This document shows, piece by piece, positions 11,564 through 35,009 of a DNA stretch of 35,155 bases. Within the stretch, counting starts at the first letter, position 1; every line of letters begins with the position of its first letter. The DNA is from Candidatus Fimenecus sp. (GTDB taxonomy: Bacteria > Bacillota > Clostridia > Oscillospirales > Acutalibacteraceae). The stretch spans positions 1 through 35,155 of the forward strand of contig JAZOWH010000105.1 of assembly GCA_045659165.1 (NCBI GenBank), in the 5' to 3' direction. The position numbers were made by a program, and so were the translations under genes. The notes beneath the pieces are model-generated. The model did not search any database and was not told the DNA's origin. It worked only from the letters and a program-made list of their open reading frames with translations.

Positions 11564-12769
11564 TTAACGTTCTACACTTAATATACCATCAACTTTTTCA
11601 ATACGAGAAATGAGGTTCTTCAAGTGGTCAATACCACTGACATTAACGGTAAGCTCAATAATTGTTCTTCCGTCTTTCATATCGTGGGTACTGATGCTTG
11701 TAATATTAACACGCATATTTGCAACCTGCATTGCAACTTCTGCCATAAGACCAACTCGTGAAAGACAAGTGAGCTGAAGTGTTGCTTTGTATTCTTCCTT
11801 CACATTCTGATTCCAATGTGCATTTACCCAACGAGCAGGCTCGGCACAGTTGATAACATCCTTTGGCACATTTGTACAATCTCTCTTATGAATTGAAACA
11901 CCGTGACCACGAGTGATAAATCCGATAATGTTGTCACCTGGCAATGGATTACAGCATTGTGAGAATTTGATAAGACAGTTATCAATTCCCTCAACAGTAA
12001 CACCATCTTTGTTTTTCTTTGAATTATCCTTAACAGTAACAACCTTGATTTCCTGACGGCTCTTATCATAATTTTTCTGATATTCTTCTTTGATATATGG
12101 CATCATACGGTTGATGGAAAGTCCACCATAACCGATTGCCGCATAGAAATCATCAACATTTTCAAGACGCTGACGCTCAGCAAGTTTCTTGATAAACTTT
12201 TGATAATCCTCGTCAGAAAGACGGATATAATTTCGTCTGAACTCGCGTTCAATTTCAGCTTTACCTTCAATAATATTTTCTTCTCGTTTTTCCTTTTTAA
12301 ACCAAGAACGAATTTTGCTCTTTGCTTGGCTTGTCTTTACAATATTGAGCCAGTCACGACTTGGACCTTTACCCTGTTGAGAAGACGTAAGAATTTCGAC
12401 AATTTCACCTGTTTTGATTACATAATCAATAGGCACAATTCGTCCGTCAACCTTTGCACCTGTCATCTTGTTACCAACAGCAGAGTGAATAGCATATGCA
12501 AAGTCAATTACGGTTGAGCCAACAGGCACATTGATAACGTCACCCTTTGGAGTATAGACAAATACTTCATCAGTAATAAGGTCGGTTTTAATTGTGGAAA
12601 CAAGTTCTCTTGCGTCCCCTGTCTCCTGCTGTGTTTCAAGCATTTCACGAATCCACTGCAAACGTTGGTCGAAGCTCTGTTTTCCACCTGAAACACCAAG
12701 CTTGTATTTCCAATGGGCTGCGATACCGAACTCGGCAGTACGGTGCATTTCCCAAGTTCTGATTTGCAC
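11564..12769 (-). CDS. Alternative reading: Rel C-terminal fragment (end of synthetase domain, TGS, helical and ACT regions)
   Basis: The ORF could only start at an internal GTG (12769) or the ATG of EMH. No RBS was noticed, so independent translation is doubtful. Confidence 0.3.
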   Translation of the reverse strand: [401 protein letters not shown]

Positions 12770-12817: not shown

Positions 12818-13768
12818 TTACATATTTGGTTTTGGTGTTGAAATATAGTCTTTGAATCTGCCTGGAAGCGGATTATACATATCATGAATAATACCAAGGC
12901 AGTTATAACAGTCGATTACACTATCAACAATAATACGGACAGCATAAATATCGTAAATTTCGTCAAACTGTTTACCTTGCATATACATTTTACGATAAAT
13001 ACCATGAACAGACTTGATTCGTCCACTGATTTGAGCCTTTGGTACAGTTTCGTGAACTCTGTCACCTATTTTCTGTTTTATACTTTCAAGGAAATCGATT
13101 CCTGAATCATTTGATTTCTTTAAACTATCCTCGATTCCTTCATAAGCCACAGGGTCAAGAAATCGGATTGCTTTATCTTCAAGTTCTTCCTTTACGGAAC
13201 GGATACCGAGACGATGAGAAATAGGAGCAAAAATCTCAAGTGTTTCAAGAGCTTTATCACGCTGTTTCTGTGCTGGCATAAACTGTAAGGTTCTCATATT
13301 ATGCACACGGTCAGCAAGTTTAACGATAATAACACGAATATCCTTTGACATAGCAAGAAGCATTTTACGGATATTTTCTGCCTGTTGCTCTTCTTTTGCT
13401 TCACTTGAATTAATCTGAACCTGACCAAGTTTTGTAACACCGTCAACAAGTACTGCTACTTCTTCACCAAAGTCTTCAACAAGTTGTTCGATTGTGTATG
13501 GAGTATCTTCCACAACGTCGTGAAGAAGTGCTGCAACCAAGGATTGCCAATCCATACCCAAATCAACAAGTATGTCACACACAGCAATTGGATGAATAAT
13601 ATATGGCTCACCGGACCTGCGTTTTTGGTCACCATGATACTGATTTGCAATTGAAAATGCCTTATCAATAACCTTTAATTCTTCTTCATTGTGAATTGCC
13701 TTTATTCTGTTTCGTAAGTTCTCAAAAAGTTCATTCACATCTACATTTACATTAACAACCTCTGCCAT
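12818..13768 (-). CDS. Alternative reading: Rel N-terminal fragment (HD hydrolase domain plus first part of the synthetase domain)
   Basis: 316-aa ORF ending at the TAA at 12818-12820. Contains RRSGEPYIIHPIAV, LLHDVVEDT and ADRVHNMRT hydrolase motifs. Confidence 0.5.
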   Translation of the reverse strand: MAEVVNVNVDVNELFENLRNRIKAIHNEEELKVIDKAFSIANQYHGDQKRRSGEPYIIHPIAVCDILVDLGMDWQSLVAALLHDVVEDTPYTIEQLVEDFGEEVAVLVDGVTKLGQVQINSSEAKEEQQAENIRKMLLAMSKDIRVIIVKLADRVHNMRTLQFMPAQKQRDKALETLEIFAPISHRLGIRSVKEELEDKAIRFLDPVAYEGIEDSLKKSNDSGIDFLESIKQKIGDRVHETVPKAQISGRIKSVHGIYRKMYMQGKQFDEIYDIYAVRIIVDSVIDCYNCLGIIHDMYNPLPGRFKDYISTPKPNM

Positions 13769-23670: not shown

Positions 23671-25065
23671 TCAGTTTATCTCATCAAGATTTGCGCCTTT
23701 TGTTTCTTTGACACCTTTTGTGAACATAATTGCGGCAACTCCTACTGCCACAACGGAAATTGCAAGACATACCCACCAGATTGGGAATTTAATCATACCT
23801 ACGATTGCAAGGAGATAGCCTACAGCAAGGCCTATAATCACTAAAAGTCCTTCTGCACCAACTACTGATGCACGGATATCTGTCGGTACTTTTTCTGTCA
23901 TCATAACATTCATATAATCTCTGCCAATCCAATATGAACCCTGATAAAGTCCTGCGAAGAAACCGATAAGATATGGATTCCAACCACAGAGAATACCTGC
24001 TACAAAGAGAGAATATCCAATGATACAGGTAATTGAAAAGCCTGTCACAGTCACCTTTCTTCCAAGTTTATCTGCAATAAAACCTGAAAGGAATGTAATT
24101 GTTGCATAGACCACAGGAACCATAAAAAGAGCCTTAGTAATATCACTTGTACTCATACCTACTTTGTGCATTGAAGATTCAAAATAGAGGGCAATTGCAG
24201 GCATTGCAGAGTCGAATATAATGTGTGAAATAATAAGATTTTTTGTATCAGAATTTGAGAAGATGTATTTCACGCCATTAAAAACACCTGACTGATTTCG
24301 TTGTGCTTCCTTCTGTTGCTTTTTGAGTTCTTTTTCTGCTTGTCTTTCTTCGATTGGTCGTGAAAGATATTCAATTCTTTCATTTATAAACACCTTTGTA
24401 TCCTTTGCAAAGATTACAACGAGTAAAACTGCAATAAAGCCGATGACAGCAGGTACTAAAAAGATTTCACGCCATTTTGTAGCATCGTCACCCATAAGTG
24501 CATCACGAAGTGCAGGAATAAGAATAACACCTAAGATTCCGAAACTCTTTAAAAAGCTGTAAATTTTTGCACGATGTTTGTCCGGTGCTTCTTCAAGGAT
24601 ATAAATAATCTGGATATCGTGTCCCATAAAGAAGCTGATGATTGCAAAGCCAACAAGGAACATTATGTAGCTTGATGAAAGGTGTATTACAAGAAGACCC
24701 AAAGCCATACCAAGCGTTGAAATGGCAAAGAGCGGTTTTCGTCCCCATTTGTCGGCAAGTGCCTTATAAAACGGTGTAAAAATTCCTAAAACATAGGTGA
24801 AAACACCCACACCTGAATGAAGCGCAAGGCCTTCCTGAAATGTGTAATATTTACCCATAAAAGGATTATTCACAAAAAACTCTGTAACGAATGACGACTG
24901 CACTGTAACAGTAAGGTTACTTGTTACCTCGTCAAGAATATTTACGATTGCAATAAGAGCGAGTAACACAAAAAAGTATTTGCTACTAGTCCCCCTGCTT
25001 TGCATCTTTTTTAATCTTTTAATTTCTCTTTGTTCAGCTTGTGAGATTTTATCTGCTGTTTTCAT
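23671..25065 (-). CDS. MFS transporter
   Basis: About 12 predicted TM segments. MFS motif A-like ALADKWGRKP between TM2 and TM3, and a long basic central loop. AAAGGGGA RBS lies 7 nt before the ATG at 25065; the track start at 25071 is TTG. Confidence 0.8.
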   Translation of the reverse strand: MKTADKISQAEQREIKRLKKMQSRGTSSKYFFVLLALIAIVNILDEVTSNLTVTVQSSFVTEFFVNNPFMGKYYTFQEGLALHSGVGVFTYVLGIFTPFYKALADKWGRKPLFAISTLGMALGLLVIHLSSSYIMFLVGFAIISFFMGHDIQIIYILEEAPDKHRAKIYSFLKSFGILGVILIPALRDALMGDDATKWREIFLVPAVIGFIAVLLVVIFAKDTKVFINERIEYLSRPIEERQAEKELKKQQKEAQRNQSGVFNGVKYIFSNSDTKNLIISHIIFDSAMPAIALYFESSMHKVGMSTSDITKALFMVPVVYATITFLSGFIADKLGRKVTVTGFSITCIIGYSLFVAGILCGWNPYLIGFFAGLYQGSYWIGRDYMNVMMTEKVPTDIRASVVGAEGLLVIIGLAVGYLLAIVGMIKFPIWWVCLAISVVAVGVAAIMFTKGVKETKGANLDEIN

Positions 25066-25093
25066 TACCAAATCCCCTTTCAGTTATATCTCA

Positions 25094-25122
25094 ATTATAA
25101 GAAATAAAATAAGACCTGTCAA
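25094..25122 (-). promoter_or_regulatory. Perfect-consensus sigma-A promoter for the MFS gene
   Basis: On the minus strand: TTGACA (25122-25117), 17 nt, TATAAT (25099-25094). The -35 lies inside the descending arm of the upstream terminator hairpin. Confidence 0.55.
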
Positions 25123-25136
25123 CAAAGACAGGTCTT
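25111..25136 (-). terminator. Intrinsic terminator after paralog P1
   Basis: On the minus strand, aagacctgtc-tttgtt-gacaggtctt is followed by a U-rich attttattt, 24 nt after the P1 stop. Confidence 0.6.
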
Positions 25137-25159
25137 TCAATTTGCATTATTTTGATTTA

Positions 25160-26164
25160 TTAGCCCTTAAAACCACCGTTGAGTGTAACAACAAAGTCAA
25201 CAATTGCAGTTGCCTGCTGAACAGGTACTGTCATACCCAAACCTGAAATTGTCATATTGTTAAGAGTGATATTTACATAATAACTCCAAGTACCGTTGAT
25301 AATTCTGCCGTTACTGTCAATAGCAACCTTAAGTCTTGGGTTTTTGTATTGAAGTGTACAATCCTGGTCAGCAATTTCTGCAGTCATACCAAGTGCTGAG
25401 AATTGACCAACAACTGAATCAATATCACCAACAACTGAAATAGCATGGCCAACTGAACCACTGTACATATTTCCGTTACCCTTATCAACCTGTTCCTTCA
25501 TAACCATTTCGATTATGATGTTGTTGCCGTTCTTGTATGCTCTTGCAGCCTGAACATCAGAAACAGAAAGATTCTGATGACCACCTGTAATACCTTTAAT
25601 ATTCATTGAGTTATTACTGAGTGCTTTTGCCATAACGCCTTCTGCAAAGCTGAGCAATGGAGCAGCTATACCAGGTGCATTAAGTGAATTAGCACGAAGC
25701 TTCATATCCTGATATGAAGTTACTGAGTTATGAGTTCTTCCTGCCGCATGTCTATATGTTTCAACAATTTCTGCAGTTGACCACTTTGTAGGGTCAACAG
25801 TTGCCTGTTGATTATTATTCTGCTGATTGTTGTTCTGCTGAATATCCTGCTGACTATCCTGCTGGTTATAATTTGGTACAAAATCATTATACTGACCAGC
25901 ACCTTCAACATCCTTCAATTCAATCTGGCCTGATTCAATAAGGTAATTATAATATTCGAACATCTGACTACAATATTCACATTCGCAAGTAGGAACACCA
26001 TTCTTGTTCTTATTTGATGAAATTGCAAAAGAAATTGAGAAAACTGCTACAAAAAGAACTACAACTGCTAAAACAATAGCAATGATTTTCTTTGTTTTAT
26101 TTGACTTTTTAGGTGATGCAGGTTCTGTTGGCTGAACAGGCTGCATTGGTTCCATATGTTCCAT
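25160..26164 (-). CDS. Surface-anchored protein P1 with unassigned conserved C-terminal domain (paralog 1 of 3)
   Basis: GGGAGGA RBS. Pro-rich cytoplasmic tail, one TM (IIAIVLAVVVLFVAVFSISFAI), a CxCxxC motif and a Q/N-rich linker. The domain shared with 29485-30456 and 30615-31532 has these blocks: W(S/T)..EIV..Y, GITGG, SDV..A.AYK.G, VE(M/L).M.EQ.D, G(S/T).GH.I.V.G.I, Y.(N/D)P..KV.I...G.I..G.WSY and GGF at the end. Confidence 0.75.
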   Translation of the reverse strand: MEHMEPMQPVQPTEPASPKKSNKTKKIIAIVLAVVVLFVAVFSISFAISSNKNKNGVPTCECEYCSQMFEYYNYLIESGQIELKDVEGAGQYNDFVPNYNQQDSQQDIQQNNNQQNNNQQATVDPTKWSTAEIVETYRHAAGRTHNSVTSYQDMKLRANSLNAPGIAAPLLSFAEGVMAKALSNNSMNIKGITGGHQNLSVSDVQAARAYKNGNNIIIEMVMKEQVDKGNGNMYSGSVGHAISVVGDIDSVVGQFSALGMTAEIADQDCTLQYKNPRLKVAIDSNGRIINGTWSYYVNITLNNMTISGLGMTVPVQQATAIVDFVVTLNGGFKG

Positions 26165-26196
26165 AGTTATATCCTCCCGACTACATATATGAATTT

Positions 26197-26225
26197 ATTT
26201 TACTATATTTACACTTCTTTGTCAA
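26197..26225 (-). promoter_or_regulatory. Sigma-A type promoter in front of P1
   Basis: On the minus strand: TTGACA (26225-26220), 17 nt, TAAAAT (26202-26197). Confidence 0.5.
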
Positions 26226-26320
26226 TGAAAATGCTAAATACTCCATCAAGGCAAACAAAAACACCCACTTCATATAATCACCACAGAATTATGGCAATCT
26301 CAAAAAGTGAGTGTTATTTT

Positions 26321-27745
26321 TTATTTTCCTATTTCAATAATCGCTTTTTCAAATTCATTATAGAATTCTGTTACAATTTCCTTGTCTTTTTCAGTACCAA
26401 AGAAACTGATTGAAATATGCAAATCGCCATTGAAACTACCTATTGTTGCAACTGCACAAGGCTTACGCTTTGCAGCACCTGATGCATACATATCCAAAGG
26501 CTCATTTCCTTCCATTGAGAGCAGCTGTGTCTTTACAACACCAAGGTTGCTGACTGACAATGACGGATTACTGTAGCACATTTTAATAATCGGTTCAGCC
26601 TGTGCATAAACCATTGATTTATATGCAAAATCCAACAATGGTACACCATAAAGCCCCATAAACTCGTCATTCTTATAATTAAGACCGGCTTTTTTTACTG
26701 CTTCAAGTGTCTGAAGAGGAGTTTCACCCACCTTATCAACTGTACAGTTAATAAATGAAACCTCGTTTGTATAACCAAGTTTTGCTGGATTTTTGATATA
26801 TCTTCTCAAATCCACAGCAGTTGTCACATTAACAGCACTATCCCCTCTCAATGAAGCAAGTTTTCTATAAGCAGACATATATGCAGTTATCAGCAAATCA
26901 TTTCCGCTACATCCTGCTTTTTTAGCAACATTCAATGCAGGTTTAAAGACTTCACCACTAATCTTTTTGCGTGTCAGAATGGGTTTATCATCTTTATTTT
27001 CAGGTGTATAAGGGAAAATATTTTTCACCTTTGATGCAGGGTTTGTAAAAAGAGCTTTTGCCTTTTTACGTTTCTCTTTCTCAAAATCACCATACACCTG
27101 GTCAAAATCTCTTGGTCCCTGACTGTAATCAATAGGACTTATACCTTTTTGAACAAGGTTTGTATAGTTACGGCATATATCAGCAACAAAAGTGAAGAAG
27201 CCTGTACCGTCAACGCACATATGATTCACAAGATAACATACAGTTGTTTTACCGGAATCATAAAAAAGATGAACCTTAAGCTGGATATTACTATCTGTTG
27301 GAATTTCCTGTGTAAAGAAAGCATCTCTTTTTGAAATAGTTGGTTCTTCCTCAGATGATGTTACAACCTCATCAATATGATATGGCATTGGCTTCCAATA
27401 TGGTGAAATCGGACTATAAACCACTTTAGAACGGAATATATGTGCCTTTTCCAACAATCCCATAACCGCAGTTTTATAATTTCTTTCATCAACTATATAG
27501 TCATAGACAAGCTCTAGTCTTTCCATTCTATCCATGTATTTACGACACATATAATTGATTTTATCAAGCAATTCGCAGGATATTTTTTTAGGACGTTTAC
27601 ATAATTTTCCGTTTTTAATTTCACTTTCAATAAGGTCAACACAGAATTTTTCGTTGTCTGCACCACTTTCAACAAGTTCTGAAAGTCTTGCATTTACTGC
27701 TGAATTATTTACTGAAAGTTGTTTTAAAACTTTATCACAATTCAT
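26321..27745 (-). CDS. HxxxD acyltransferase of the condensation / CAT-like superfamily (stand-alone C-domain-like or alcohol acyltransferase-like)
   Basis: VNHMCVDGTGF (His codon at 27221-27223) matches the (H)HxxxDG catalytic motif at about the expected distance from the N-terminus. Size of about 474 aa fits. AAGGGG RBS lies 9 nt before the ATG at 27745, and only 13 nt separate it from the GH3 stop. Confidence 0.55.
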   Translation of the reverse strand: MNCDKVLKQLSVNNSAVNARLSELVESGADNEKFCVDLIESEIKNGKLCKRPKKISCELLDKINYMCRKYMDRMERLELVYDYIVDERNYKTAVMGLLEKAHIFRSKVVYSPISPYWKPMPYHIDEVVTSSEEEPTISKRDAFFTQEIPTDSNIQLKVHLFYDSGKTTVCYLVNHMCVDGTGFFTFVADICRNYTNLVQKGISPIDYSQGPRDFDQVYGDFEKEKRKKAKALFTNPASKVKNIFPYTPENKDDKPILTRKKISGEVFKPALNVAKKAGCSGNDLLITAYMSAYRKLASLRGDSAVNVTTAVDLRRYIKNPAKLGYTNEVSFINCTVDKVGETPLQTLEAVKKAGLNYKNDEFMGLYGVPLLDFAYKSMVYAQAEPIIKMCYSNPSLSVSNLGVVKTQLLSMEGNEPLDMYASGAAKRKPCAVATIGSFNGDLHISISFFGTEKDKEIVTEFYNEFEKAIIEIGK

Positions 27746-27758
27746 TATGATTTGCCCC

Positions 27759-29453
27759 TTAGTCAATTACATGAGACAAGAAGAATTCTCTTCTTTCATC
27801 ACTATCAATAACCTTGATTGGCTTAACCTGATTAAGGTTTGCACCACGAGCTCTGAGTACCTCACGATAATCGTCATATGTGCCGTGACGAAGGAATTTA
27901 ACTTCACATTTTCCGAGAGCACCACTATCGATAAGTGGTTTAACAGAAACATTACCCTCGCAGAGTTTTTCTTCAAATACTTTTGTATATCTTTCCCATT
28001 CACTCTTTGACACAGGCTTTGCAGTTTCAACAAGAAGTGCATAGTGTCCTGGTGAAGTTGTACGGTCAGGATAAATGCTATAACCGATAAATGTTTCATT
28101 AAGTTCTTCACACATATTTGCTACGATTTCGTCAAATGCCATTGAACTGATTTTTTCACCACTGATATTTGCAATCTGGTTAAGTCTGTAACAGAATGTA
28201 ATTTTTGGTGATTCGTGGTAGAAACCTGTTACACGAATTACGTCTTCAATTCTGTAACGATAGAAACCACTTGTATTTGTAAGAATGATTTCATATTCCT
28301 TGCCAACTTCAAGGTCCTTGATTGTAAGAAGGTTATCATAATCATCTGAATCAATAGGACGGAATTCGTAGAAACCATTCTGTGGAAGCATTACATATTC
28401 AAATGAATTGAGTTCAATTGGAACTGCCATCATTGCTTCTGTTGCAGCATATCCAAGATAGTGAATAGCCAAGTCATCACCAAGATATCTCTTGAGTTTC
28501 TTTTCATAGAAAGCAAGAGCACCTGTACCCATACCATACATCCATGAAACGTTTGGCCAGATTCTTGGCACGATTGGTGATACGTCAAAGCCTTTACGGA
28601 ATTCTGCACGAAGTTCTTCAGCTCGTTTTGGATTTGGTTTGAGTGACTTCTGAAGTTTTACTCGCATTTCATCAGGACATCTTATACTGCTGTTGATAAC
28701 ACCTTTTTCAATATCGTCACAAATCATTTCCCAATTTTCTTCTAAATAGAAGAACATAGATTCAAGTGTTGTGATGAAAATTGTACCAAGATAACTTACA
28801 TTTCTGTGCTGTAAAGCAAAGAGTAATTTAAGGTAATGTGAATCATAATCAAGGTTTCCATCAGCAAACTGTAATTCTTTAGGTGATGTTCCAATGAATG
28901 GAACAACAGGCTTAATATTAAGAAGTGGAATTGAAGAAAGACAACTTACTGTTTTTCCACTATCAAGTTTACGACAGTTTACTTCCGCAGTGAGCAAGCC
29001 CTTCTGTGGTGGCATTTTTTTGCCCTGTGATTTGAAATACTTATAAGCACAACCAACAGGTGCACTGAAACTGAAACACTGACAAACCCATTCAGCCCAT
29101 GCTGAAAGTGGTACAAGTTTTGACTTACCTGTACTACCTGATGACTCTGTAAATCTACGTACAAAAGCTGCTGTGTTAAGGTTCTTTTCACCATTTGCCA
29201 TTCTTTGTACATACTCGTCATAATCATAGTAGTTTGTAAGTGGAACAAGTTTTTTGTAATCTTCGTAACTATGTACATCAGCAAAATTGTTCTTTTTGCC
29301 GTAAACTGTATTCTTGTTCTTTTTCATCAATGATTTCAACACAGTTTCCTGAACTTTGTTTGCATTCTTGGCATAGATTTCCAATTTAGCAAGTTCCATT
29401 CGTCCAAGCATAATACCAAAATTGGTGTTCATTCTAGCTAATATAGGATTCAT
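27759..29453 (-). CDS. GH3-family adenylate-forming acyl-acid amido synthetase-like protein
   Basis: Three GH3 core motifs seen: FTESSGSTGKSKLVP (the P-loop-like SSGTTxGxxK motif), YLGYAATEAMMAV (the YASSE-like motif), and FYRYRIEDVIRVTGFYHESPKITFCYR (plant GH3 has YRYR.GDV..V.GF.N..P...F..R). Start set at the ATG at 29453, after GGGGTG. Confidence 0.75.
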   Translation of the reverse strand: MNPILARMNTNFGIMLGRMELAKLEIYAKNANKVQETVLKSLMKKNKNTVYGKKNNFADVHSYEDYKKLVPLTNYYDYDEYVQRMANGEKNLNTAAFVRRFTESSGSTGKSKLVPLSAWAEWVCQCFSFSAPVGCAYKYFKSQGKKMPPQKGLLTAEVNCRKLDSGKTVSCLSSIPLLNIKPVVPFIGTSPKELQFADGNLDYDSHYLKLLFALQHRNVSYLGTIFITTLESMFFYLEENWEMICDDIEKGVINSSIRCPDEMRVKLQKSLKPNPKRAEELRAEFRKGFDVSPIVPRIWPNVSWMYGMGTGALAFYEKKLKRYLGDDLAIHYLGYAATEAMMAVPIELNSFEYVMLPQNGFYEFRPIDSDDYDNLLTIKDLEVGKEYEIILTNTSGFYRYRIEDVIRVTGFYHESPKITFCYRLNQIANISGEKISSMAFDEIVANMCEELNETFIGYSIYPDRTTSPGHYALLVETAKPVSKSEWERYTKVFEEKLCEGNVSVKPLIDSGALGKCEVKFLRHGTYDDYREVLRARGANLNQVKPIKVIDSDERREFFLSHVID

Positions 29454-29484
29454 ATTAATCACCCCGAAAAATTATATCTTAATT

Positions 29485-30456
29485 TTAAAAACCGCCACCA
29501 GTTGTTACAACATAGTCAATATCACCTGATGCATCCTCAACGAGAACTTTTTCAATCTGAAGACCTCTTACAGTAACACTGACAACATAACTCCAAGTAC
29601 CTTTTTCAATAACACCCTTTTCATTAATCTTAACCTTCACCACAGGGTTCACATAATGAAGTTCAACAAACGCATCTTTAAAGTTGATTGTCCATGAAGG
29701 GAAATTATCAGCAACAACCGCAATGTTACCAACAACAGAAATTCCGTGACCTGTTGTACCCTTGAATGTATCACCATATGCGTCATCTTTCTGCTCAACC
29801 ATTGTCATTTCGACAATTGTATATTTACCCTCTTTATATGCCTTTGCTGTCTTTACATCAGATGGAACAAGGTCATTATAGCCACCTGTGATACCATCAA
29901 ACTCAATTGAATTTGCTTTAAGTGCAGCTTTCATAATAGGCATTGCGAGTTCAATAAGGAATTCCAAAGCACTATTACTGAGTTTAACCTTTATTCCCTC
30001 ATCCATTGTCATTTTCTGAATTGACTTAACACCTGTTGAGTTGTTAGCTGCTTTTTTGTAGTAATTTACGATTTCAGCCTTTGTCCATTCAGCAGGATTC
30101 TTTGGAAGTTCACGTTCAGGTTCTTTTGTATCTTCCTGATTTTCGCTATCCTGCACCGCATCATCTGTTTCAACACCAGTCTCTGTGTTCTCATCAACCA
30201 TTTCGTCTGATACGCCATCATTTGACACAAACCCATCATCGTCTGTACCAGGTGCATCATCTGCAATAATAAAATCTGAACCAGTCTGCTCAAGTTGTTT
30301 CTGAGCTGTTGATTTACCTATAACAAGGACTCCCATTGCAATAGCAACAGCAAGGACAACAGCAAGAAAACTTGTAAAACCTGAAGCTGCCTTTTCCTTC
30401 TTCATTTTATTAATTTCCACCTGTTCCGGAGTTAAAGGTGTTTTTGATTTTGCCAT
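29485..30456 (-). CDS. Surface-anchored protein P2 with the same unassigned C-terminal domain (paralog 2 of 3)
   Basis: AAAGGGGAA RBS. Basic cytoplasmic tail, one TM (FTSFLAVVLAVAIAMGVLVIG), an acidic D/E-rich linker, then the shared domain ending TTGGGF. Roughly half the domain residues are identical to P3 in my by-eye alignment. Confidence 0.75.
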   Translation of the reverse strand: MAKSKTPLTPEQVEINKMKKEKAASGFTSFLAVVLAVAIAMGVLVIGKSTAQKQLEQTGSDFIIADDAPGTDDDGFVSNDGVSDEMVDENTETGVETDDAVQDSENQEDTKEPERELPKNPAEWTKAEIVNYYKKAANNSTGVKSIQKMTMDEGIKVKLSNSALEFLIELAMPIMKAALKANSIEFDGITGGYNDLVPSDVKTAKAYKEGKYTIVEMTMVEQKDDAYGDTFKGTTGHGISVVGNIAVVADNFPSWTINFKDAFVELHYVNPVVKVKINEKGVIEKGTWSYVVSVTVRGLQIEKVLVEDASGDIDYVVTTGGGF

Positions 30457-30495
30457 AACAAAATTCCCCTTTTAAATACAACTTTATATTTAATC

Positions 30496-30524
30496 ATTTT
30501 ACCCCTTTTGTGTTCATTTGTCAA
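30496..30524 (-). promoter_or_regulatory. Sigma-A type promoter of the P2-GH3-acyltransferase(-P1) unit
   Basis: On the minus strand: TTGACA (30524-30519), 17 nt, TAAAAT (30501-30496). The -35 flank atttgtcaacgaaaa is 14/15 identical to the one in front of P3. Confidence 0.5.
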
Positions 30525-30547
30525 CGAAAAACATTGTTGTATACCCT

Positions 30548-30587
30548 TCATTTTGCACTTTGCGCTTTGCACTCTGCCTTTTGCATT
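30548..30587 (-). repeat. Terminator-adjacent TGCAAA motif, copy B (expanded)
   Basis: The minus strand reads aatgcaaaaGGcagagtgcaaaGCGCAAAGTGCAAAatga directly after the T7 tract of the P3 terminator. It contains four (T)GCAAA units. Confidence 0.6.
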
Positions 30588-30610
30588 AAAAAAACTCCCT
30601 TTCGGGAGTT
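30586..30610 (-). terminator. Intrinsic terminator after P3
   Basis: On the minus strand, aactccc-gaaa-gggagtt is followed by T7. The hairpin starts 4 nt after the stop codon. Confidence 0.75.
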
Positions 30611-30614
30611 TTTC

Positions 30615-31532
30615 TTAGAATCCGCCACCTACGACGATTACATATTTCATTATTGCATCTGCTTTATTAACCATAATTCCGCTGATTTCAAGATGTCTGA
30701 TTTTGATGTCAGCATTATAACTCCATACGCCTTTTTCAATGATACCCTTATCATTGATTTTAACCTTAACTGTTGGGTCGGCATAACGGATTTTAATATC
30801 TGCTTCCTTGTATTTAATATCAAACTGTGGGAACTGGTCAACTGCTGTTGCGATATTGCCAAGAACATTGATTGCGTGACCAACTGAACCTGACTGAGCA
30901 TCACCATACATACCGTCTACTTGTTCAACCATATACAACTCAACGACTGTATAGTTACCCTGCTTATATGCCTTTGCAGACTTTACATCAGATGCCTGAA
31001 GCTTTGTAAAGCCACCTGTAAGTCCGTTATAAGTCATAGCGTTATTCTTAATAACTGTGCTGATAGCAGGCTTAATCATATTAAGGAAGAAGTTAAGAGC
31101 TCCATCACCATCGTTGACAACGAGTTTTGCAAGTTCCATTGTCTGTGATGATTTTACAGTAGGATGAGTTTTGATTGCAGACTGTTTATAATACTCAACA
31201 ATCTGCTCCTTTGACCACTTTGCAGGGTCATCAGGAAGTTCTTCTTTTACTGTTGTTGATTCGACTTCCTTATCTTCTGTATCTTCTTTGTCATTTTTAT
31301 CATCAACCTTGTCAGTTGAAGGTTCTTCTTCACCTTCTTCAGTTGAAGGTTCTTCTGTCACAGATTCATCAGTTGAAGGTTCAACCTGAACATCGTCTGA
31401 ATTTACAGCTTTATCCTCTGTTGTGCTTTCTGTATTCACATCAGTTGTAGGGGTCTCATCATTGTTACCACCACAAGCCACAAAAACAAACATCATTGAC
31501 AATACTAAAAGAATAGCAATTATTTTTTTCAC
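30615..31532 (-). CDS. Lipoprotein P3 with the same unassigned C-terminal domain (paralog 3 of 3)
   Basis: AGGGAGG RBS lies 8 nt before the GTG at 31532. Signal peptide VKKIIAILLVLSMMFVFVAC with a lipobox-like FVAC (Cys codon at 31473-31475). Acidic linker with EPST repeats, then the shared domain ending VVGGGF. Confidence 0.75.
   Translation of the reverse strand: MKKIIAILLVLSMMFVFVACGGNNDETPTTDVNTESTTEDKAVNSDDVQVEPSTDESVTEEPSTEEGEEEPSTDKVDDKNDKEDTEDKEVESTTVKEELPDDPAKWSKEQIVEYYKQSAIKTHPTVKSSQTMELAKLVVNDGDGALNFFLNMIKPAISTVIKNNAMTYNGLTGGFTKLQASDVKSAKAYKQGNYTVVELYMVEQVDGMYGDAQSGSVGHAINVLGNIATAVDQFPQFDIKYKEADIKIRYADPTVKVKINDKGIIEKGVWSYNADIKIRHLEISGIMVNKADAIMKYVIVVGGGF
31312..31382 (-). repeat. 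In-frame coding repeat in the P3 linker
   Basis: The 14-nt unit tcagttgaaggttc occurs three times (31312, 31339, 31369) at 27- and 30-nt spacing, encoding EPST(D/E). Confidence 0.8.
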
Positions 31533-31564
31533 AATATCAGCCTCCCTAAATATTGTATACAATC

Positions 31565-31593
31565 ATACTACAATAATTCATAATATTTGTCAA
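31565..31593 (-). promoter_or_regulatory. Sigma-A type promoter in front of P3
   Basis: On the minus strand: TTGACA (31593-31588), 17 nt, TAGTAT (31570-31565). It begins 6 nt after the upstream stop codon. Confidence 0.45.
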
Positions 31594-31599
31594 CGAGAA

Positions 31600-33192
31600 T
31601 TACTGAACAGATTCTATCATTTCCACAAATGATTTCACAAAAACTGAACCCGCAGTTCTGCTAACGATATTTACTTCCTCATTTTCACCGATTAATGAGT
31701 GGTATTCATTGTCACGAAGAACATATCCTGCCTGGTCATTACAAAGACCATAAACCATTACATTTGGAACATCTATAGCATCTGTCAATGGCGCATAATC
31801 CCATGATTCACCTGTCCATGCTGCATCTCCTGATTCAGGTCCACCAAAGATAAGCATAGGGTCAAACTCACCTGGACACATAAAGACACCGACTTTGTTG
31901 CCGAGTTCCATATATCCGATTTCAGTAACCATTATCTTCTTCAAGCCATCTTTCACAATTACTGGTGTAAGAATATCCTGACGAGCAGCAAGAGTGAGTA
32001 TTCCGTTATCAACATTCAAATAAACTTCTTTGTGTGCCACATTGAGTACAGGCTCAAGCTTAATATCATTGTTGATTTTAATTATCTTATCTGCAAGTGC
32101 ATAACCGTAGCTTGTGATATTTTCAATATCAGTTGCACCATCTTTGTTTGTCAATTCTTTTTCTTGTCGGATTGCAAGTTCAGCACCGATTACATAAACT
32201 ACATTTGCACCAGCTTTTTCATTAATTGCCTTTTCAATATAGTAAGGATAGTCGGCAGTAAGTTCATCAGGTCCTGCACCCATACCTGTACAATGCATTG
32301 AGCCCTGAAGAATCCATGTTTCTTTTGAACCATCTGCAGGTACGAAACGAAGTCTGTGCATATTTGAGTCAAATGACCAAGGGTCACGTGCATCACGCAT
32401 ATATTCACTTACATCTGTGTAGCCATAATAAAGGTTACCTTTTTTCATATCCTTGATTGCACTTTCAACACAATCAACTGTTTTTTGGAAAAGGTTATCC
32501 ATAAACTTTTGATTCTTTACAACCTTATACTTATTAAAGATACCACCTAATGCAGCGTTTGATGTATTGATAATAAGACCTGATAAAAGTGGAATATTCA
32601 TACCAAGAGTATCAATACATGAATGCTGATGTAAAACAGAAACATTTAAACTGATTATATTATTGTTAGCAACAGCCTGTTCAACCTTGTTACGGATTGT
32701 CTGGACATCCCCTCGTGAAAGTCCAAAACCATCAATAACTGCATGAACCACAATACCGCTTACACCATCACTTACAGCGTAAACTCTTACTCGTTGGTCA
32801 TCATTGATTTTTTTAGGCACTCTACCTTCAAACACCTCAAGTGACCCTGCAAGGAAATATTCCCCATTCATAATGTCAAGGCCCTCAAGGAGTGATGCTC
32901 CTGCATAACCCATATACCATGCTGAATCCTTCTGTGTGTTTTTGTCAAACTTCTTTTCGCCTTCATAAAAATTATTAGCTTCGTAATCTTTAAGTTTTTC
33001 CCAATCCCCGTCATACCCAGGCCAGAATACATTAAGCACAGTAAGAATTCTGTGGATAAGCACATCAAGGCAAAGATTAAGAGAGTTTTCAATATTGATA
33101 GTTTCTGTCTTTACAAAAGCAGAAACAGGCACACTGAAAACTGAAAACATCATAACGAGAGAAAGGACTATTGCGAGAATCTTTTTTGTCAT
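31600..33192 (-). CDS. Secreted hydrolase, tentatively neutral/alkaline ceramidase-like (N-terminal domain family)
   Basis: Signal peptide MTKKILAIVLSLVMMFSVFSVPVSA after an AAGGGG RBS; the ATG at 33192 is used and the 34-codon upstream extension is rejected. The layout LAG....R....I.D...VR.YAV.DG....VVHAVIDGFG, then LHQHSCIDT (compare THTHSGP), then PGEF and N.QAGYV resembles bacterial ceramidase-domain proteins. Recognised by eye only. Confidence 0.4.
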   Translation of the reverse strand: MTKKILAIVLSLVMMFSVFSVPVSAFVKTETINIENSLNLCLDVLIHRILTVLNVFWPGYDGDWEKLKDYEANNFYEGEKKFDKNTQKDSAWYMGYAGASLLEGLDIMNGEYFLAGSLEVFEGRVPKKINDDQRVRVYAVSDGVSGIVVHAVIDGFGLSRGDVQTIRNKVEQAVANNNIISLNVSVLHQHSCIDTLGMNIPLLSGLIINTSNAALGGIFNKYKVVKNQKFMDNLFQKTVDCVESAIKDMKKGNLYYGYTDVSEYMRDARDPWSFDSNMHRLRFVPADGSKETWILQGSMHCTGMGAGPDELTADYPYYIEKAINEKAGANVVYVIGAELAIRQEKELTNKDGATDIENITSYGYALADKIIKINNDIKLEPVLNVAHKEVYLNVDNGILTLAARQDILTPVIVKDGLKKIMVTEIGYMELGNKVGVFMCPGEFDPMLIFGGPESGDAAWTGESWDYAPLTDAIDVPNVMVYGLCNDQAGYVLRDNEYHSLIGENEEVNIVSRTAGSVFVKSFVEMIESVQ

Positions 33193-33222
33193 AAAAACTA
33201 CCCCTTTTAATTTATGTTTTCT

Positions 33223-33251
33223 ATTATACATCCTTTTATAAAATTCTTCAA
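33223..33251 (-). promoter_or_regulatory. Sigma-A type promoter of the ceramidase-like gene
   Basis: On the minus strand: TTGAAG (33251-33246), 17 nt, TATAAT (33228-33223). Confidence 0.45.
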
Positions 33252-33281
33252 TAAGAAAGTGACAAATTTCCTTAAATGTAA

Positions 33282-33314
33282 AACTTTTACACAATTTTTC
33301 AATGTGTAAAAGTT
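33282..33314. promoter_or_regulatory. Perfect 11-bp inverted repeat in the divergent control region
   Basis: aacttttacac (33282-33292), 11-nt spacer, gtgtaaaagtt (33304-33314). It lies upstream of the -35 elements of both divergent promoters. Confidence 0.4.
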
Positions 33315-33452: not shown

Positions 33453-35009
33453 ATGAGTAAACCACAGCTTTTAACAGTAAAAGATATCGTTAATTTTGCT
33501 GCTGAAAAATACGGTGAGAAAGACTTTTGTAAGTTTTTCCGTGACAGCGAAATCGAAATCAAAAATTTCAGCGAATTCCGTGAAGATTGTCTTGCTGTTA
33601 GCAGATACATAAAAACTATTGAAAAAGAAAAAATGCACATTGCATTTATCGGCAAAACAAGTTACGAATATATTGCTTGTCTTACAGGTATGATTTGTAG
33701 CGGTAATGTTGTTGTACCATTTGACCCTAATATTTCTGTGGAAGAAGCTTGTCAGCTTTTTGACGACGCTGACATCCAGATGCTTTTCTGTGAAGAAGAA
33801 TTTTTAGGTAAAGCAGAAGAAATCCAGAAAACATATAAGGGCATCCGTCAGGTTGTATCTCTTGGTGACTGGCACTGGTTTGACAACATTTTCAAAACAT
33901 ATTCTGCTGATTCAGAATATGCTCACCTTTCAGATATCGAGATTGACCCATATGAATGTGCATTGATTATCTACACATCAGGTACAACAGGTGAAAGAAA
34001 GGGCGTTATGCTCACTAACCACAACCTTGCATCTAACTCATGTTACGATACATACAAGGCTGCTGATGGTGAGGTTTGTCTTTCAGTTTTACCTATGCAC
34101 CATGTTTTCTGTTATGCATGTGACGTGCTTAAGGTACTTTATGACGGTTCTGCAATTTGTCTTAACGGTGCACTCACAAACATTTACAGAAACTTCCTTA
34201 TATTTGAACCAACAAACACAAGAATCGTTCCACTTCTTTGTAAAGCAATTATTACAAAAATCAAAATTCAGGAAAAGAAACATCCTGAACTTTCTCCTCG
34301 TGAAGCTGCTGAGCTTGTTGTTGGTAAGCGTCTTACAAGATTCATTGCTGGTAGTGCTTTCTTAAGTGGTGCTTTAATTGATGAATTTGCAAAGTACGGA
34401 ATTACTGCTCGTCAGGGTTACGGTATGAGTGAATGTAGTCCTCGTATCACAACATCTGACTTTTCAGAAGATAATAAATATTCAAATGGTGTTCTCACAG
34501 GTGTTGACGATGTAAGAGTTGTTGACGGTGAAATTCAGGTTAAGGGTCCTTCAGTTATGAAAGGATACTACAAAAAGCCTGAAAGAACTGCTGAGGCATT
34601 CACAGAAGACGGATATTTACATACAGGTGACTTAGGTTATATTGAAAATAACCACATCTACCTCGTTGGTAGAAAGAAAAACCTTATCATCCTTTCAAAC
34701 GGTGAAAACATCTCTCCTGAAGAACTTGAAAACAAGTTTGTTGACGACGGAATCGTGAAAGAAATCGTTGTACGTGGTGAAAAGGATACAATCATTGCAG
34801 AAATTTTCCCTGATAATGACCTTGCTAACACATTGGGAATTACAGATATTCCTGCTGAAATCAGCAAGATTGTTGACAGAGTAAATACAACTCTTAACAC
34901 AGACAGACAGATTCATTCGTTTGTTATAAGAGAAACTCCATTCGAGAGAACTTCAACAGGCAAAATCAAACGTGCACAATTTAACTTTGCGGAGGATGAA
35001 GCAAAATGA
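33453..35009 (+). CDS. ANL-superfamily adenylate-forming enzyme (long-chain fatty acyl-CoA/AMP ligase-like)
   Basis: IIYTSGTTGERKGVMLTNHNL (A3/P-loop), GYGMSEC (A5), GDLGY...YLVGRKKNLIILSNGENISPEELE (A7-A8) and TSTGKIKR (A10). Confidence 0.8.
   Translation: MSKPQLLTVKDIVNFAAEKYGEKDFCKFFRDSEIEIKNFSEFREDCLAVSRYIKTIEKEKMHIAFIGKTSYEYIACLTGMICSGNVVVPFDPNISVEEACQLFDDADIQMLFCEEEFLGKAEEIQKTYKGIRQVVSLGDWHWFDNIFKTYSADSEYAHLSDIEIDPYECALIIYTSGTTGERKGVMLTNHNLASNSCYDTYKAADGEVCLSVLPMHHVFCYACDVLKVLYDGSAICLNGALTNIYRNFLIFEPTNTRIVPLLCKAIITKIKIQEKKHPELSPREAAELVVGKRLTRFIAGSAFLSGALIDEFAKYGITARQGYGMSECSPRITTSDFSEDNKYSNGVLTGVDDVRVVDGEIQVKGPSVMKGYYKKPERTAEAFTEDGYLHTGDLGYIENNHIYLVGRKKNLIILSNGENISPEELENKFVDDGIVKEIVVRGEKDTIIAEIFPDNDLANTLGITDIPAEISKIVDRVNTTLNTDRQIHSFVIRETPFERTSTGKIKRAQFNFAEDEAK

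Follow-up and report, generated by a model that had tools for sequence, protein, structure and literature searches.

A GH3 acyl-acid amido synthetase gene and a gene for a free-standing acyltransferase with the condensation/PapA5 fold form a strict two-gene cassette in uncultured Clostridia. We analyzed this cassette in a stretch of 35,155 nucleotides from Candidatus Fimenecus sp. (contig JAZOWH010000105.1 of assembly GCA_045659165.1), referred to here as the window. The GH3 gene (27759..29453, reverse strand) encodes a protein of 564 amino acids (aa), and the acyltransferase gene downstream of it (26321..27745, reverse strand) encodes one of 474 aa. We propose a two-step pathway, in which GH3 would join a free, probably fatty, acid to an amine and the acyltransferase would add a second acyl group from a thioester. 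We put the chances of this reading at about even. The product of the cassette is probably an acylated amide (an amino-acid or amine lipid). A preliminary description of the window had reported the lengths of the two proteins, a 13-nt spacing, the motifs, and close operonic coupling, and all of these are as it gave them.

Linkage of the two genes

Relatives of the acyltransferase were scanned for in one genome per GTDB species. This gave 394 loci, and the linkage counts reported here come from the best 80 of them. All 80 cassette hosts are uncultured Clostridia from animal guts and digesters, labeled Acutalibacteraceae, Oscillospiraceae, and similar. All genomes compared are metagenome assembled, and the source assembly itself is 69% complete. 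The GH3 and acyltransferase genes were adjacent in 80 of 80 loci. GH3 was directly upstream and on the same strand in 79 of these, and in the other (L057) it was directly downstream, 7 nt away. The preliminary description had made its proposal depend on the two genes being conserved as neighbors, and they are.

The intergenic spacer in the window (27746..27758, reverse strand) is 13 nt long and, read directly, contains a Shine-Dalgarno-like AAGGGG. Across 75 related loci the median gap is 4 nt, and 72 of the 75 gaps fall within -4 to 16 nt. In related loci the acyltransferase ribosome-binding site falls within the 3' end of GH3. The linkage was also seen from the GH3 side. We surveyed 301 sampled genomes of the bacterial family, and three had an orthologue of this GH3 (at least 73% identical), with the acyltransferase gene adjacent in all three. 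Two look-ups by GH3 protein also found the acyltransferase as the next gene. The two proteins are conserved to different degrees (about 70% identity for GH3 versus about 43% for the acyltransferase). The linkage between them is far beyond chance.

We rejected the idea that every relative of the acyltransferase is linked to GH3. The source genome has a 425-aa paralogue on contig C18 (L084:8322-9599, forward strand; 38% identical) with no adjacent GH3 gene, and relatives at 22 to 26% identity also lack one. Acyltransferase-family genes are likewise absent beside the other GH3 paralogues of the bacterial family. The linkage is specific to the cassette clade.

Two kinds of rearrangement illustrate how the pair behaves. 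First, the island around the window cassette recurs in L099, a locus from a close relative, where the housekeeping genes that bound it are also the same (Mfd, DUF554, and a metallophosphoesterase). Over the compared island (window 23671-33294), the flanking proteins are well conserved: 91% identity for a major facilitator superfamily (MFS) transporter, 79% for a ligase, 76% for a protein that we call paralogue A, and 69% for a secreted protein. GH3 is 67% identical and the acyltransferase 40%. The L099 cassette is in another slot, between paralogue A and the MFS gene, and in the opposite orientation. This suggests that the cassette was replaced or was inserted independently. Second, in L069, L097/L098, and G375, the pair is at the distal end of a five-gene operon, in the order AMP-binding ligase, condensation enzyme, 70-aa carrier protein, GH3, and acyltransferase. 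The carrier stop codon in these operons is 6 nt from the GH3 start. The pair is a strict cassette, which survives reversal of gene order, inversion within an island, and attachment to another operon. A search of the literature on bacterial GH3s paired with condensation enzymes found nothing beyond the papers on OlsH (discussed below). As far as the searched literature shows, the gene pair itself is undescribed.

The GH3 protein and the acyltransferase

The GH3 reading frame begins with an ATG at 29453, which is preceded by a ribosome-binding site (GGGGTGA), and ends with a TAA stop codon (27759-27761). The protein matched three Pfam GH3 models, all far over their cutoff of 23.6 bits each (PF03321, 257.8 bits; PF23571, 87.4 bits; PF23572, 63.6 bits). 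Its whole length could also be aligned with plant GH3s of solved structure (grapevine GH3-1, rice GH3.8, JAR1, GH3.5, GH3.6, GH3.12, and GH3.15) at E values from 1e-53 to 1e-43. These results confirm the GH3 identity given in the preliminary description.

The three nucleotide-binding motifs were compared with those of plant GH3s and of the orthologues, which are 67 to 93% identical across the 80 loci. Motif 1, SSGSTGKSKLVP (residues 104-115; 29109..29144, reverse strand), aligns with the plant SSGTSAGERKLMP, and 78 of 78 listed orthologues fit SSGS[TV]Gxx[KR]xxP. Motif 2, YAATEA (residues 335-340; 28434..28451, reverse strand), aligns with the plant YASSEC. A YxA[TS]EA-type motif was detected in 67 of 80 orthologues, the search pattern having missed the other 13. 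Motif 3, YRYRIEDVIRVTGF (residues 398-411; 28221..28262, reverse strand), aligns with the plant YRYRVGDILRVTGF. Its Asp is invariant across 80 orthologues, and its YRYRIEDV stretch is the counterpart of the plant YRxGD type. Near the C terminus, NLNQVKP (residues 539-545) carries an NQxK lysine, as in plant GH3s, and this too is conserved in the orthologues. By these alignments, the 564-aa protein is a full-length GH3 with intact catalytic motifs. It shares the three-domain architecture, the nucleotide-binding motifs, and the C-terminal NQxK lysine with plant enzymes such as JAR1, GH3.5/3.6/3.8, and GH3.12. However, the plant enzymes act alone on hormones, whereas this one is bacterial and obligately paired with an acyltransferase.

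The identity of the partner was less obvious from profile searches. The window acyltransferase has no PF00668 match and reached no curated hidden Markov model cutoff (PapA_C, 21.5 bits versus 30; WS/DGAT model TIGR02946, 24 versus 309.95; PapA5 model NF006787, 16.9 versus 396), and a sequence search of the PDB found no match. However, when we scanned 22 aligned family members directly, 19 matched PF00668 (E ≤ 0.01), nine matched PapA_C, and six matched AATase. Many relatives also bear precomputed PF00668 matches. Of the profile checks suggested in the preliminary description, the one for GH3 succeeded outright, and the one for the acyltransferase failed with the protein itself but worked with its family.

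An AlphaFold model built on the family alignment had a predicted local distance difference test (pLDDT) score of 91.9 and a predicted template modeling (TM) score of 0.91. Foldseek matched it to 251 PDB chains at E ≤ 0.001. The top 50 were all in the condensation superfamily, including AzeD, the LgrA C domain, tyrocidine C/E (TycB E), the surfactin C domain, and PapA5. The top matches had a probability of 1.0 and TM scores of 0.6 to 0.7 (0.70, target normalized, for PapA5, 1q9j), with the two-lobe, V-shaped fold of the CAT-like enzymes.

The catalytic motif is NHMCVDG (residues 174-180; 27206..27226, reverse strand). N174, H175, M176, D179, G180, and G182 are invariant in the 22-sequence alignment, and NHMxxDG is kept in 79 of 79 orthologues, so that the first His of HHxxxDG is always Asn. 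(Residues are numbered here from the ATG at 27745. The preliminary description counted from an upstream TTG, and its catalytic His182 and Asp186 are our His175 and Asp179, both kept in the 79 orthologues.) Because of the PF00668 matches in its family, its modeled fold, and the invariance of NHMxxDG, we assign the acyltransferase to the condensation/CAT-like superfamily, as a free-standing member in which the catalytic His-Asp is intact. Asn at the first His position is a fixed feature of the clade. Both the HxxxD superfamily assignment and the Asn replacement had been recognized in the preliminary description.

PapA5 and WS/DGAT enzymes of actinobacteria also have a free-standing two-lobe condensation/CAT-type fold with a catalytic HxxxD, and both families esterify lipids from thioester donors. 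The cassette acyltransferase differs from them in scoring far under the family cutoffs, in having Asn for the first His, and in having an extra N-terminal extension. The extension is helical, about 50 aa long, confidently modeled, and clade specific. A profile search of 1.84 billion representative sequences found 213 relatives at E ≤ 1e-30. We surveyed the architecture of the 150 best of 1,845 representatives, in which nearly all were stand-alone proteins of about 425 aa and none was fused to another domain. The extension was present only in the few that matched from the start of the profile. We considered whether it might be a hidden carrier domain and rejected this, as the position of the phosphopantetheine Ser is an unconserved Thr or Asp, and one member lacks the region.

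The paralogue on contig C18 also lacks the extension. It is the commoner type of acyltransferase in the bacterial family and is just over the PF00668 cutoff (30.8 versus 30.6 bits). Its gene start/stop-overlaps the preceding gene for a 266-aa multipass membrane protein (L084:7522-8322, forward strand). By hhalign, this membrane protein has a cytoplasmic N terminus similar to the extension found in the GH3-linked enzymes (E = 4.5e-4, probability 33%).

The proposed pathway and its alternatives

The two-step reading takes its precedent from the ornithine-lipid logic of OlsH and OlsI, with a second enzyme of unrelated fold. In Singulisphaera acidiphila, OlsH converts free fatty acid and ornithine into N-acyl ornithine with ATP and Mg2+ and needs neither CoA nor ACP. 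OlsI, a separate O-acyltransferase, then adds the second acyl chain to the OlsH product (PMC12493201). Therefore, the statement in the preliminary description that bacterial GH3s are largely uncharacterized is outdated. As in our cassette, a bacterial GH3 is in one operon with a dedicated second acyl-transfer enzyme. However, OlsI is an alpha/beta-hydrolase, whereas the cassette partner has the condensation/PapA5 fold. Also, the cassette hosts are Gram-positive gut Clostridia, and a 2026 review of ornithine-lipid synthases names no Clostridia among the OlsH-bearing orders (PMC12971839). OlsH orthology was rejected for the window GH3, which scored 68.5 bits against the OlsH model NF052613 (cutoff, 620) in a match limited to the C-terminal half (residues 295-537).

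The source genome has a second GH3 gene on contig C186 (L083:5403-7136, reverse strand), the product of which is 44% identical to the window GH3. An ABC exporter gene is upstream. Downstream, after 20 nt, is a gene for a 518-aa protein with a weak alpha/beta-hydrolase signal (L083:3826-5382, reverse strand), an arrangement that resembles OlsH/OlsI. This partner is absent beside the same GH3 paralogue in six other loci.

Characterized condensation-superfamily enzymes (PapA5, WS/DGAT, and nonribosomal peptide synthetase C domains) use thioester donors. The proposed pathway combines this with GH3 family biochemistry. In the first step, GH3 would adenylate a free carboxylic acid with ATP and Mg2+. 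The same active site would then acylate an amino acid or amine on its amino group, forming an amide without coenzyme A (CoA) or a carrier. The acid would probably be a fatty acid or a fatty-acid amide that keeps a free carboxylate. In the second step, as the fold and the invariant residues suggest, His175 would act as general base, held by Asp179, and the amide would receive a second acyl group, on a hydroxyl or amino group, from a thioester donor. This would be an acyl-acyl carrier protein (acyl-ACP) or acyl-CoA, and in this genome it might be the acyl-carrier protein loaded by a neighboring ligase.

That ligase belongs to a trio of genes of the kind found in CTA cassettes, which make fatty-acid amides. 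It is a fatty-acyl AMP/CoA ligase (33453..35009, forward strand) that matches PF00501 and PF23562, and its best NCBIfam match is long-chain-fatty-acid--CoA ligase. The ligase gene is conserved beside the cassette in L003, L004, and L099, and it is upstream within the cassette operon in L069 and L097. Its stop codon overlaps the ATG of a CTA-type condensation gene (ATGA), which starts at 35006 and is cut by the end of the contig (35006..35155, forward strand). The rest of the condensation gene is on contig C223 of this assembly, where a gene for a 76-aa carrier protein with LEMSSFD comes next. Orthologues of the condensation enzyme carry HHLAxDxYS, which fits the fatty-acid-amide clade motif (D/H)HxxxD(S/A/G). 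By these matches, the island holds a complete ligase/condensation/carrier trio of the fatty-acid-amide kind.

This bears on the carrier-independent scheme in the preliminary description, in which GH3 activates and the partner transfers. In that scheme, GH3 would only activate its acid, and the condensation-fold enzyme would take acyl-AMP, or an intermediate still bound to GH3, and acylate an alcohol or amine. The great majority of the 80 loci have no carrier gene within 10 kb, and the tight coupling of the pair is conserved. The N-terminal extension, restricted as it is to a few of the best representatives, could be a docking element. Also, Gram-positive anaerobes make little acyl-CoA. However, all characterized GH3s complete the amide-forming half-reaction themselves (PMC12493201; plant structures). 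Every cell has housekeeping acyl-ACP, so a missing nearby carrier gene proves little, and a dedicated carrier protein is in fact encoded beside the cassette both in this island and in three further lineages. We know of no characterized condensation-superfamily enzyme with an adenylate donor. Therefore, we consider transfer from an adenylate very unlikely, and we think just as little of the variant in which the two proteins dock through the clade-specific extension to make a carrier-free, CoA-free condensation system. What survives of the idea is narrower. Most cassette-bearing genomes have no dedicated carrier gene nearby, and in those genomes the cassette may be independent of a dedicated carrier.

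The CTA cassettes OaaA/OaaACP/OaaC make fatty-acid amides in gut Clostridia, according to the account in PMC13310621, which cites Chang et al. 2021. OaaC, from Coprococcus eutactus, typifies the fatty-acid-amide condensation clade with its (D/H)HxxxD(S/A/G) motif and uses acyl-ACP as the donor (PMC13310621). The CTA enzymes and the cassette acyltransferase are both free-standing condensation-fold enzymes of gut Clostridia, both depart from HHxxxDG, and the trio is physically beside the GH3 cassette in the window island and in three other arrangements. However, the adenylating partner of the acyltransferase is GH3, whereas CTA systems use an ANL ligase and a carrier protein. We considered membership of the acyltransferase in the OaaC clade and rejected it. 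There was no detectable similarity to the CTA-type condensation enzyme of the island (BLAST E = 0.14), the motif is NHMxxDG rather than that of the clade, and the neighboring ligase and carrier belong to the other condensation gene.

To see how far the association extends, we compared genomes. Among 24 cassette genomes, five had a close orthologue of the CTA-type condensation enzyme and three had a more distant one. In a tree of 77 GH3 orthologues, the loci with a trio nearby or elsewhere in the genome account for two of the three main subclades and include the deep-branching L057. In the 301 sampled genomes, any CTA-type condensation gene was found in 19 of 27 with any GH3 gene versus 14 of 274 without one (odds ratio 44; Fisher p = 2e-15, a statistic that ignores shared ancestry). 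GH3 ligases share genomes, and sometimes operons, with fatty-acid-amide enzymes in this bacterial family. The recurrence of fatty-acyl neighbors suggests that the product of the cassette is a lipid. Separately, on contig C12 of genome G273 (186523-189643), a CTA-type condensation gene comes directly after another GH3 paralogue, on the same strand, in a pairing distinct from the cassette studied here.

The same association could mean that the steps run in the opposite order. A condensation enzyme, either the acyltransferase itself or the CTA enzyme, would first make an N-acyl (omega-)amino acid with a free carboxylate. GH3 would then adenylate that carboxylate and couple a second amine to give a product like a lipo-dipeptide, and the cassette would tailor gut fatty-acid-amide signals. 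Oleoyl aminovaleric acid, one of the known products of such trios, bears a free carboxylate (PMC13310621). The cassette is directly behind the ligase, condensation, and carrier genes in one operon in L069, L097, and G375, and the trio is beside it in the window, L003, L004, and L099. The genome-level co-occurrence and the tree distribution described above also favor this order. However, 67 of the 77 orthologues in the tree have no trio within 10 kb, 14 of the 24 genomes have no match at all, and nothing identifies the acid substrate of GH3. We regard this order as unlikely, though it is a stronger candidate than transfer from an adenylate.

Several of these observations, and some others, also weigh against the two-step reading as we propose it. 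Besides the 14 cassette genomes with no CTA-type condensation match, two had weak partial matches only. The main GH3 subclade, with 67 loci, is the one that shows no trio within 10 kb, and therefore the cassette must work without the trio there. The link to the fatty-acid-amide pathway is thus not universal, and the cassette can exist without it. Plant GH3s that act on jasmonate, auxin, and benzoates outscored the OlsH model (152 to 186 versus 68.5 bits), and therefore a fatty-acid substrate is not established. The order of the two steps is also not derivable from sequence.

The plant matches raise a further alternative. The acid that GH3 links to an amino acid might be a small carboxylic acid, aromatic or otherwise (candidates include indole-3-acetate, phenylacetate, a benzoate, and bile acids), and the acyltransferase might esterify or amidate the conjugate to give a soluble signal or a detoxification product. 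The matches to plant auxin, jasmonate, and benzoate GH3s are full length, whereas the OlsH match is confined to the C-terminal half. Two neighboring genes fit as well. An aldehyde dehydrogenase gene, with the benzaldehyde dehydrogenase MdlD as its best match, is directly upstream in one shallow subclade. In the main clade (L009-L077, e.g., L038:11656-13140), the cassette is closely followed by a convergent gene for a membrane-anchored peptidase of the M20 amidohydrolase family, a neighbor counted in 48 of 83 loci. It is conceivable that this peptidase hydrolyzes the product, since the M20 family includes N-acyl amino acid amidohydrolases. However, the two genes are confined to closely related loci, where shared ancestry explains their presence equally well, and we rejected both as parts of the cassette. 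(The flanking genes in the large subclade are housekeeping genes: polC, ispG, rseP, dxr, and cdsA.) The neighbors that recur independently of rearrangement are fatty-acyl enzymes. Furthermore, plant GH3s of all substrate classes resemble this one to an even degree, so that the similarity is uninformative on specificity. Homology does not reveal the GH3 substrate. We think a nonlipid conjugate improbable, about on a par with the reversed order.

The island and the wider setting

The genes around the cassette in the window form an array on the reverse strand. At its head is a gene for a secreted protein of 530 aa (31600..33192), an open reading frame with a counterpart in L099. We considered a ceramidase identity for this protein and rejected it (PF04734, Ceramidase_alk, E = 0.15 only; no PDB sequence match). 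Next come open reading frames for paralogue C (30615..31562) and for paralogue B (29485..30456), a membrane-anchored protein encoded 31 nt upstream of GH3. The extracytoplasmic C-terminal domain of paralogue B has no family assignment, with no Pfam match and no significant PDB fold match. Paralogue A (25160..26164), downstream of the acyltransferase, has the same domain and is kept in the Candidatus Fimenecus loci and in L099. The array ends with the gene for the MFS transporter (23671..25071; PF07690, 108 bits).

The domain shared by paralogues A, B, and C, all three of them membrane anchored, is C-terminal and about 200 aa long, and it has 383 relatives in Clostridia metagenomes. A model of it (pLDDT, 72 to 94) gave a best E value of 0.057 against the PDB, with TM scores below 0.2.

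Promoter-like sites with 11 or 12 of 12 matches precede paralogue B (30524-30496), paralogue A (26225-26197), and the MFS gene (25122-25094). The best is the paralogue B site (TTGACA-17-TAAAAT). There was no promoter-like site of comparable strength between paralogue B and GH3. Therefore, the local transcription unit probably consists of paralogue B, GH3, and the acyltransferase.

We think that the cassette probably cooperates with the rest of the island, which is to say the trio, the MFS exporter, the secreted protein, and the three surface-anchored paralogues. Its product is probably exported or displayed at the cell surface.

Elsewhere in the window, a RelA/SpoT homologue is split into two adjacent open reading frames (11564-12769 and 12818-13768, reverse strand). 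Between them, the match to the synthetase domain model breaks off, leaving a gap of about 48 nt. A frameshift, a pseudogene, or an assembly error could be the reason.

In the literature searched, there is one characterized bacterial GH3 (OlsH, 2025) and none from Bacillota. What is new here is a candidate GH3-dependent two-enzyme acylation in which the second enzyme is of another kind. It also comes from another phylum and is repeatedly tied to fatty-acid-amide cassettes. If the alternative of transfer from an adenylate were true instead, it would involve a donor chemistry that, to our knowledge, is not described for the condensation superfamily.

Many uncultured Clostridia of guts and digesters carry the cassette, and it recurs beside fatty-acid-amide machinery, the products of which act on human G-protein-coupled receptors. 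If the two-step reading is true, there would be two GH3-dependent routes to acylated amino-acid lipids, with the cassette structurally distinct from the first. The cassette would couple ATP-driven, carrier-free amide formation to a second acylation, which would be useful for biocatalysis. Its presence would further suggest that a class of gut-microbial lipids or signals is yet to be discovered.

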